Sequence record: PV340542
Direction: 5' to 3' (one strand)
Source of the DNA: Escherichia phage mEp506
Length of the DNA stretch: 40,128 nucleotides
How positions within the stretch are numbered: position 1 is the stretch's first letter; each line of letters opens with the position of its first letter. Made by a program: the position numbers and the translations under genes. Shown here one piece after another: positions 32,183 to 32,503 of the stretch. The notes beneath the pieces were generated by a model that had not been told where the DNA came from, did no database searches, and saw only the letters and a list, made by a program, of their open reading frames with translations.

Positions 32183-32229
32183 CAAACTGTCACTGATACT
32201 ATCGTGTAGTACACAGCAAGGAGAACGAT

Positions 32230-32454
32230 ATGTATACAGTTGGGTTTGGTTGGATCTTCGTCGGTATTTTTATTGGGTTAATTCTCTGGTTTTTCATCAA
32301 CCGCGCCAGCGTCAGAGCGAACAGGCAGGTTGAATTACTTGAGTCTATCGACCAGAAATTATCAAAAATAGTAGATCCAAACTTCGAGGCAAATAACAAA
32401 GACCAGTCGAAAGAAAACTACCTTGAAGAAGCAAGGAAAAAAGCTGGGCTTTGA
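32230..32454 (+). CDS. small membrane-anchored protein of unknown function (accessory insertion between K and I)
   Basis: 74-aa ORF with an N-terminal hydrophobic helix (VGFGWIFVGIFIGLILWFFI), AAGGAG RBS, terminator downstream; absent from the lambda K-I junction. Confidence 0.55.
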   Translation: MYTVGFGWIFVGIFIGLILWFFINRASVRANRQVELLESIDQKLSKIVDPNFEANNKDQSKENYLEEARKKAGL

Positions 32455-32470
32455 GAGCGTAAATTAACAA

Positions 32471-32493
32471 ACCACCTACGGGTGGTTTTTTTA
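32471..32493 (+). terminator. rho-independent terminator
   Basis: ACCACC-tacg-GGTGGT followed by TTTTTTT. Confidence 0.5.
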
Positions 32494-32503
32494 TGGGGGC
32501 AGC

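Follow-up and report, generated by a model that had tools for sequence, protein, structure and literature searches.

The window analysed here, the whole 40,128-nt stretch of Escherichia phage mEp506 DNA (sequence record PV340542), carries on its + strand the tail gene K (31473..32182, stop codon at 32180-32182), recognised by Pfam Prok-JAB and NLPC_P60 matches to its JAB/MPN and NlpC/P60 domains, and the tail assembly gene I (32504..33112), recognised by matches to Pfam Lambda_tail_I and PHROG 32. Between them lies a gap, 32183-32503, whose sole gene is an ATG-initiated open reading frame of 74 codons (32230..32454 including the stop codon, + strand) that matches Pfam PF13974 and PHROG 5031. 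It encodes a YebO-family protein equivalent to gp20 of phage HK022, and is referred to below as gp20 (MYTVGFGWIFVGIFIGLILWFFINRASVRANRQVELLESIDQKLSKIVDPNFEANNKDQSKENYLEEARKKAGL). An earlier note on this DNA had proposed that about 320 bp of lower-GC DNA between K and I encode an accessory 74-aa membrane protein, and the base composition agrees: GC content is 0.417 in 32183-32503, 0.404 in the gp20 reading frame and 0.388 in 32161-32469, as against 0.56 and 0.554 in the flanking tail genes K and J.

Evidence that gp20 is a coding gene

Comparison of gp20 with a 91%-identical homologue yielded 21 changes over 44.5 synonymous sites and 8 over 177.5 non-synonymous sites, a dN/dS of about 0.06; gp20 is a genuine coding gene under strong purifying selection. 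In remoter pairs of homologues the synonymous sites are saturated and the protein is kept. Two minus-strand reading frames (32199-32399 and 32345-32509) were dismissed, since the stop-free length opposite gp20 ranges from 48 to 93 codons among the homologues and is unconserved, and selection on the + strand is clear. At a permissive threshold Rfam returned no RNA family at the locus; the only match, STnc130, reached 24.5 bits (gathering score 55) on the minus strand of the gp20 terminator hairpin and is taken as chance.

Expression signals of the gp20 cassette

A Shine-Dalgarno sequence, AAGGAG (32218..32223, + strand), stands 6 nt before the gp20 ATG and is the strong ribosome-binding site that had been pointed out before; GGAG-type sites are likewise found upstream of gp20 homologues. 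A simple sigma-70 scan of 31400-33700 detected no -35/-10 pair upstream of gp20. Comparative conservation pointed to a putative extended -10 element, TGaTACTAT (TGATACTAT; 32194..32202, + strand), which has no good -35 and from which transcription is predicted to start near 32209. In 15 of 20 diverged loci, representing all three of the genomic slots described below, a TGnTAnnnT sequence ends (3' end) 25-33 nt before the start codon, in upstream regions that are otherwise unalignable (median ungapped identity 0.32). When these regions were shuffled 2000 times, a mean of 0.75 loci and a maximum of 5 had TGnTAnnnT at that position, and just one match was seen elsewhere in the 130-nt upstream regions. 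There is thus good comparative evidence for a putative autonomous promoter of gp20, and the proposal of the earlier note that the gene has its own signals is borne out by the ribosome-binding site, the terminator and, as a prediction, this positionally conserved element.

The intrinsic terminator lies at 32469..32495 (+ strand), essentially where it had been placed previously (32471-32493). It consists of a stem-loop at 32469-32488 (AAACCACC-TACG-GGTGGTTT) with an 8-bp stem and a 4-nt loop (-13.6 kcal/mol, z = -2.6 versus shuffles) and a T7 run at 32489-32495, and directly 3' of it stands ATGGGGGCAGC, which contains the ribosome-binding site of gene I. Nearly all homologous loci end in the same manner, a GC hairpin and then a T run leading up to the ATGG(G/T)..ATG of the following tail gene; in those where a lipoprotein gene lies directly 3' of the gp20-like gene, the hairpin comes after both genes. 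In related phages this hairpin-T-run-ATGGG..ATG layout is found ahead of H, M, I and J, and it may be a boundary for cassette exchange. Copies of the junction layout, in which a hairpin with a 4-nt loop (e.g. TTCG or TACG) is followed by a T7 run and ATGG(G/T)nG..AATATG, were noted at 32469-32506 and 33579-33615 of the window, at 1964-2000 and 2626-2661 of the HK140 sequence (L053) and at 969-1008 of that of HK97 (L001). The layout also stands before J in HK140, where the moron is absent.

An accessory cassette found at three tail-gene junctions

In lambda, K and I overlap and there is no insert, in keeping with the adjacency on which the earlier note had built its argument, and in HK140 and mEpX2 the K-I slot is filled by an unrelated gene encoding a 113-aa lipoprotein. 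Similarity to HK140 ends at 32160 and returns at 32470, in the terminator; further downstream, identity in 60-nt windows is 0.58-0.77 up to 32769, 0.90 for 32770-32829 and 0.97-1.0 from 32830 onwards. Judged by this alignment, the block exchanged relative to HK140 is 32161 to about 32775 and takes in, besides the cassette, the final 7 codons of K and some 90 codons at the start of I; the lower GC content of that part of I (0.456) agrees with this extent. The interval proposed earlier, 32183-32503, thus stands for the cassette itself but is smaller than the exchanged block.

Loci of the gp20 type were gathered from viral and genome collections, and the slot of each was assigned relative to the tail genes by tblastn. 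The K-I slot is occupied in E. coli phages, Serratia and others, the H-M slot, directly 3' of the tape measure gene, in Pantoea and several metagenomic phages, and the T-H slot, which is that of HK97 gp15, in Pantoea rwandensis, L036 and L042. Slot does not track sequence relatedness, the H-M copy L029 being 76% identical to the K-I copy L028 and the T-H copy L036 74% identical to L029, which indicates that the cassette has moved between junctions. All informative homologous loci lie within the siphophage tail cluster, beside tape-measure or tip genes, three loci (L044-L046) being uninformative in this respect. An identical gp20 occurs in E. coli phages with HK97-like, HK022-like and HK542-like tape measures, and intact gp15 and intact gp20 are found together in six phages.

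The locus has the marks of a moron as described in PMC3594210, which cites Juhala et al. 2000: the genes flanking the insert are adjacent in lambda, the GC content is deviant (0.39-0.42 versus 0.55-0.56) and the insert has its own terminator. It lacks the conserved presence and gene order of a lambda-type tail-tip structural component, as lambda, HK140 and mEpX2 have no gp20 and it occupies three slots elsewhere. The homologues, which could have revealed a conserved structural part of the tail, are instead absent or replaced in relatives and vary in position, and the accessory status assigned to the gene beforehand is thereby upheld.

The alternative cargo of the K-I slot is a gene encoding a lipoprotein of ~110 aa (signal peptide plus Cys; PHROG 914), found at 1613-1954 in both HK140 (L053) and mEpX2 (L054), at 4278-4610 in the Serratia locus L004 and at 1493-1807 in L041. 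In Serratia and in one metagenomic phage a gp20-like gene and the lipoprotein gene stand in tandem, with a single terminator after both.

Predicted architecture of the protein

The most hydrophobic 19-mer of gp20 comprises residues 5-23 (Kyte-Doolittle mean 2.36), and the Kyte-Doolittle profile, the positive-inside rule and AlphaFold2 together place a transmembrane helix at residues 4-23 (VGFGWIFVGIFIGLILWFFI; 32239..32298, + strand). It is followed by a 51-residue tail with 10 K/R and 9 D/E, so that the N-terminal helix and charged tail foreseen in the earlier note are both present. In every gp20-type member that was examined, K/R is lacking in front of the helix, residue 2 is usually D or E, and three basic residues (K/R) come right behind the membrane span; in gp20 these are three R within 12 residues. 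On this charge pattern the single helix is predicted to be oriented with its N-terminus out and its C-terminus in, and we infer that gp20 resides in the inner membrane.

An AlphaFold2 model based on an alignment of 15 sequences (mean pLDDT 72.7) predicts a long helix over residues 2-48, with pLDDT 80-94 over residues 1-30, then a break at D-P-N and a further helix at 52-71 of low confidence. Alignments single out two segments of the tail: the juxtamembrane YebO signature NRASVRANRQVELLESI (residues 24-40; 32299..32349, + strand), which is invariant or nearly so in the phage subfamily, and the C-terminal motif YLEEARKKAGL (residues 64-74; 32419..32451, + strand), which is nearly invariant although the linker that precedes it varies in length. 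A profile search of PDB sequences with gp20 gave no solved relative (best E = 0.53), NCBIfam scores for gp20 were nowhere near the cut-offs, and the PADLOC defence models produced zero matches for gp20, gp15 and the HK140 lipoprotein.

Previous records of the gene and the HK97 allele

The locus is already known as the HK022 gene 20 moron. HK022 gene 20 (AAF30371.1; GenBank AF069308, HK022_20) encodes a 100% identical protein, has been annotated as "moron gene product" since 2000 and also lies in the K-I slot with the same terminator; nothing of substance differs between the two. More widely, a 461-bp region of the window recurs with 99.3-100% identity in 27 records of HK97-like phages (Hendrixvirinae), among them HK544, HK542, mEp234, ECP1, HK75, HK97 and HK022, and the gene is present in only 7 of 5426 complete E. 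coli genomes. RefSeq labels the prophage copies "YebO family protein"; an annotation that would fit the locus is "YebO-family moron protein (HK022 gp20-like)". In the record of phage ECP1 (L002, KY979108.1) the annotation is apparently off by one, the 711-bp K gene (2373-3083) being called 'YebO' and the genuine YebO-like gene (3131-3355) 'hypothetical protein'.

In HK97 (L001, AF069529; 6131-6229), gene 20 has a stop at codon 33 that leaves only the membrane helix, and it is because of this stop that the HK97 record numbers K as gene 19 and I as gene 21 and shows nothing but a "terminator" in between. HK97, where gp15-type exclusion first came to light, is thus itself a naturally occurring null mutant of gene 20.

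The literature that could be searched yielded neither a functional study of gp20 nor an account of the purifying selection, the extended -10 at a fixed distance, the C-terminal motif, the three slots or the HK97 nonsense allele. Added here, too, is the explicit link between gp20, gp15 and YebO through intermediate sequences.

Relationship to chromosomal YebO and HK97 gp15

gp20 scores 47.7 bits against Pfam PF13974 (YebO; cut-off 27, E = 1.8e-12) and matches PHROG 5031 with E = 7e-41, and PF13974 is present in all 38 of the 38 homologue clusters. The protein has the hallmark of the family, an N-terminal membrane helix followed directly by N-R-A-S-x-R-x-N-x-Q-[VI]-E-L-L-E. YebO is a small family, of which only 60 clusters (50% identity) turned up in a set of 1.84 billion representatives, and its named sources (Escherichia, Enterobacter, Metakosakonia, Serratia and Pantoea) are Enterobacterales and their phages, one metagenome-assembled entry being labelled Eubacterium sp.

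E. coli YebO (b1825) belongs to the same Pfam family and is 73% identical to gp20 in a core of 30 aa (22/30; IGLILWFFINRAS-R-N-Q-ELLE). It is an inner-membrane protein of 95 aa, with a longer N-terminus and a C-terminal half unrelated to gp20, and is encoded at a fixed chromosomal locus whereas gp20 is phage-borne. The yebO gene is co-transcribed with mgrB (PMC5861431), and a CRISPRi screen found its knock-down to be an advantage during exposure to antibiotic (PMC12063145).

HK97 gp15 also matches PF13974 (35.4 bits, cut-off 27) and is 43% identical to gp20 over 44 aa (BLASTP E = 5e-9). Both have one N-terminal membrane helix followed by R-x-S-x-RAN-x-Q-V-E, and each is encoded by a moron of that tail operon which has a terminator to itself; the juxtamembrane signature that gp20 has in common with E. 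coli YebO is present in gp15 in a degenerate form. In the phage-borne group the helix sequence varies and NRASVRANRQ[VI]ELLESI is invariant or nearly so, and a linker of variable length leads to a nearly invariant [YI]L[ED]EARKKAGL end. The YLEEARKKAGL peptide is missing from both HK97 gp15 and chromosomal YebO. More distant members, among them L042/P0044, P0053, P0079, P0081 and P0085, combine a gp15-like middle (e.g. KEISEKQSAQIDLLIALAHK) with a gp20-type C-terminus, and these bridging sequences place gp15 and gp20 in one phage clade, in which gp15 looks like a C-terminally shortened form. gp20 is most likely a copy of YebO, the inner-membrane protein of enterobacteria, that has become adapted to phages. 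The homology search called for in the earlier note has thus led to HK022 gene 20, to the YebO family and to HK97 gp15.

Longer YebO-like variants, read as 133 aa or as 140 aa, with the NRASVRANR core and a larger, different C-terminal domain, were noted on three IMG/VR contigs (L044, L045 and L046; gene start at ~7950-7962), in a context where the usual M, L, K and I genes are not recognised; a related representative has 154 aa.

Other features of the tail region

Relative to HK542 and ECP1, to which it is about 97% identical, the window has one base missing in each of five homopolymers, at 26333 (T7 to T6), 29116 (A8 to A7), 30011 (C5 to C4), 31771 (G5 to G4) and 37032 (G6 to G5). The tape-measure gene is thereby split into three reading frames (27096-29213, 29201-30022 and 30058-30375) and K into two (31473-31862 and 31727-32182, by the 1-nt deletion in the G5 run at ~31771), and the end of J is altered; the single-base gap in K is seen in comparison with HK97, HK542 and ECP1. 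A reading of the frameshifts in K and the tape measure as signs of a decaying prophage was dropped in favour of sequencing errors, the pattern looking like homopolymer under-calling.

A second insert of low GC content (0.408) lies between I and J (33113-33612). It contains a 71-aa minus-strand reading frame (33232-33447; PHROG 6806, E = 1.6e-6) and a terminator (33579-33596) almost identical in form to that of gp20. At this position HK97 and HK022 carry different 'moron / reverse moron' genes, and the cargo of the mEp506 insert (33113 to about 33450) gave zero megablast or tblastn matches in 50,697 phage records. The gp15 moron is lacking in mEp506, where only 34 nt separate the T-frame reading frame from the start of the tape measure (27061-27096); phages with the HK97-type tape measure have a gap of ~350 bp there that contains gp15. 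Accessory envelope genes follow J at 37165-38446, namely those for an outer-membrane protein (PHROG 557, 37165-37467), a 'membrane associated protein' moron (PHROG 425, 37467-38105) and the superinfection-exclusion protein Cor (PHROG 1119, 38213-38446).

A candidate superinfection-exclusion function and its alternatives

We regard gp20 as a candidate prophage-expressed inner-membrane blocker of DNA entry by other siphophages, a reading that we hold with about even confidence. It is proposed because its paralogue HK97 gp15 excludes phages: gp15 is a moron-encoded superinfection-exclusion protein that blocks DNA injection (Cumby et al. 2012, as related in PMC3594210). Besides this homology, the argument by analogy draws on the association with tape-measure and tip genes, the autonomous signals, the predicted helix with its positive-inside pattern and the lipoprotein morons known from its slot; the same phage also has the Cor exclusion gene, and its tail region collects envelope-acting morons. 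In outline, the moron would be a self-contained transcription unit (extended -10, Shine-Dalgarno sequence, 74-codon gene and terminator) within the late tail operon of a temperate siphophage of the HK97/HK022 type, and gp20 would be made from the repressed prophage. The protein would lie in the inner membrane with a short periplasmic N-terminus, one helix and ~50 cytoplasmic residues, these last consisting of the invariant signature segment, a variable linker and the invariant C-terminal peptide. Superinfecting long-tailed phages would then be stopped after adsorption, the tape-measure/tail-tip conduit being kept from delivering DNA across the inner membrane. Since intact gp15 and gp20 co-occur in six phages, the target range of gp20 is probably other than that of gp15 and the two are probably not redundant; and since the same gp20 accompanies three types of tape measure, it is not simply matched to the tape measure of its own phage.

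Several observations argue against exclusion, among them the three tape-measure types that gp20 accompanies and its lack of a PADLOC match. Membership of the YebO family is no guarantee of it, as neither deletion nor over-expression of E. coli YebO had an effect on HK97 according to PMC3594210. A mostly cytoplasmic gp20 is ill placed to block a conduit in the periplasm, save by way of its membrane helix or of an inner-membrane host factor. Moreover, outside the YebO core no part of gp20 is better conserved than YLEEARKKAGL, which is missing from gp15, so that the two proteins may work differently, and this same difference keeps alive two rival accounts of gp20. One of them is lysogenic conversion, in which gp20 would mimic or interfere with chromosomal YebO and alter the envelope or a stress response, for example the PhoQ/MgrB circuit. 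The close identity of the YebO core to the host protein, the place of yebO in the mgrB operon (PMC5861431), the benefit of its knock-down under antibiotic (PMC12063145) and the conserved cytoplasmic C-terminal motif, which suggests a host partner, all speak for such a role. We nevertheless consider it unlikely, as the C-terminal two thirds of gp20 are unrelated to YebO, the informative phage copies all lie in tail operons by tape-measure or tip genes, a pattern expected for injection functions but not for a gene of general physiology, and the sole characterised phage member is an exclusion protein (PMC3594210). The other account would have gp20 help its own phage in the lytic cycle, by preventing either premature insertion of the tape measure or tip into the membrane of the producing cell or re-injection of an infected cell by progeny, after read-through from the late promoter. 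Anti-terminated late transcription must indeed include a gene that lies inside the late operon in the same orientation, the association with tail genes is tight in all genera, and the N-terminal domain of I was part of the same exchange as the gene. A function exercised only late would, however, have no need of a terminator and a conserved, if putative, promoter; the tails of lambda, N15-type phages, HK140 and mEpX2 assemble without gp20, and HK97 is a fully viable laboratory phage despite its codon-33 stop. We therefore judge lytic help to be distinctly less probable than lysogenic conversion.

Small single-span proteins with a highly charged C-terminal tail include class III holins and some small membrane toxins, and gp20 could on that resemblance be a membrane-damaging protein, holin-like or of the abortive-infection type, that kills or depolarises the cell on a trigger. 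Its gene lies outside the lysis cassette and matches no holin, toxin or PADLOC model, constitutive expression from a prophage would be harmful, and the paralogue gp15 acts at entry (PMC3594210), all of which makes this very improbable. Least credible of all is that gp20 is a conserved tail-tip protein with a structural or assembly role, or that there is no gene but a chance reading frame in an intergenic spacer or a non-coding RNA. The position between two tail-tip assembly genes and the existence of stop-free stretches on the minus strand are what could be said in favour of it; on the other side stand the absence or replacement of the gene in related phages, its varying slot, its N-terminal membrane anchor and own terminator, the low dN/dS of the + strand, the variable length of the minus-strand frames and an Rfam match below threshold.

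Returning to DNA-entry exclusion, we advance one extension of it tentatively and on balance doubt it, though less than we doubt lysogenic conversion: proteins of the gp20 type could form a second class of injection blockers derived from YebO and functionally distinct from the first, whose YLEEARKKAGL end would engage a factor in the inner membrane or cytoplasm of the host on which incoming siphophages depend and whose cassette would hop by way of the shared junction sequences. If so, their activity would have been invisible in all work with HK97, which is a gene 20 nonsense mutant. Few anti-phage defences are as poorly understood as the small membrane proteins by which prophages stop injection, and within the YebO family only gp15 has been studied. 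gp20 could reveal whether entry blockers are more generally built on the YebO scaffold, and might hint at the role of chromosomal YebO.

Comparison with known systems

The action proposed for gp20 is analogous to that of P22 SieA, Tuc2009 Sie2009 and TP-J34 Ltp, prophage-expressed membrane proteins that block DNA entry after adsorption. The analogy is functional only: sizes and topologies differ, and no sequence relationship of gp20 to these three proteins appeared as a cross-hit in Pfam, PHROG or PADLOC. Phages escape from both Ltp and gp15 by way of the tape measure (PMC10883804). HK97 gp15 differs from gp20 in lying in the T-H rather than the K-I slot, in lacking the YLEEARKKAGL end and in the tape measure that it accompanies, which is of the HK97 type for gp15 and of any of three types for gp20. 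With a shared fold and operon, another conserved tail, many laboratory lambdoid phages that carry it and a null allele in HK97 itself, gp20 is the natural comparison to gp15.
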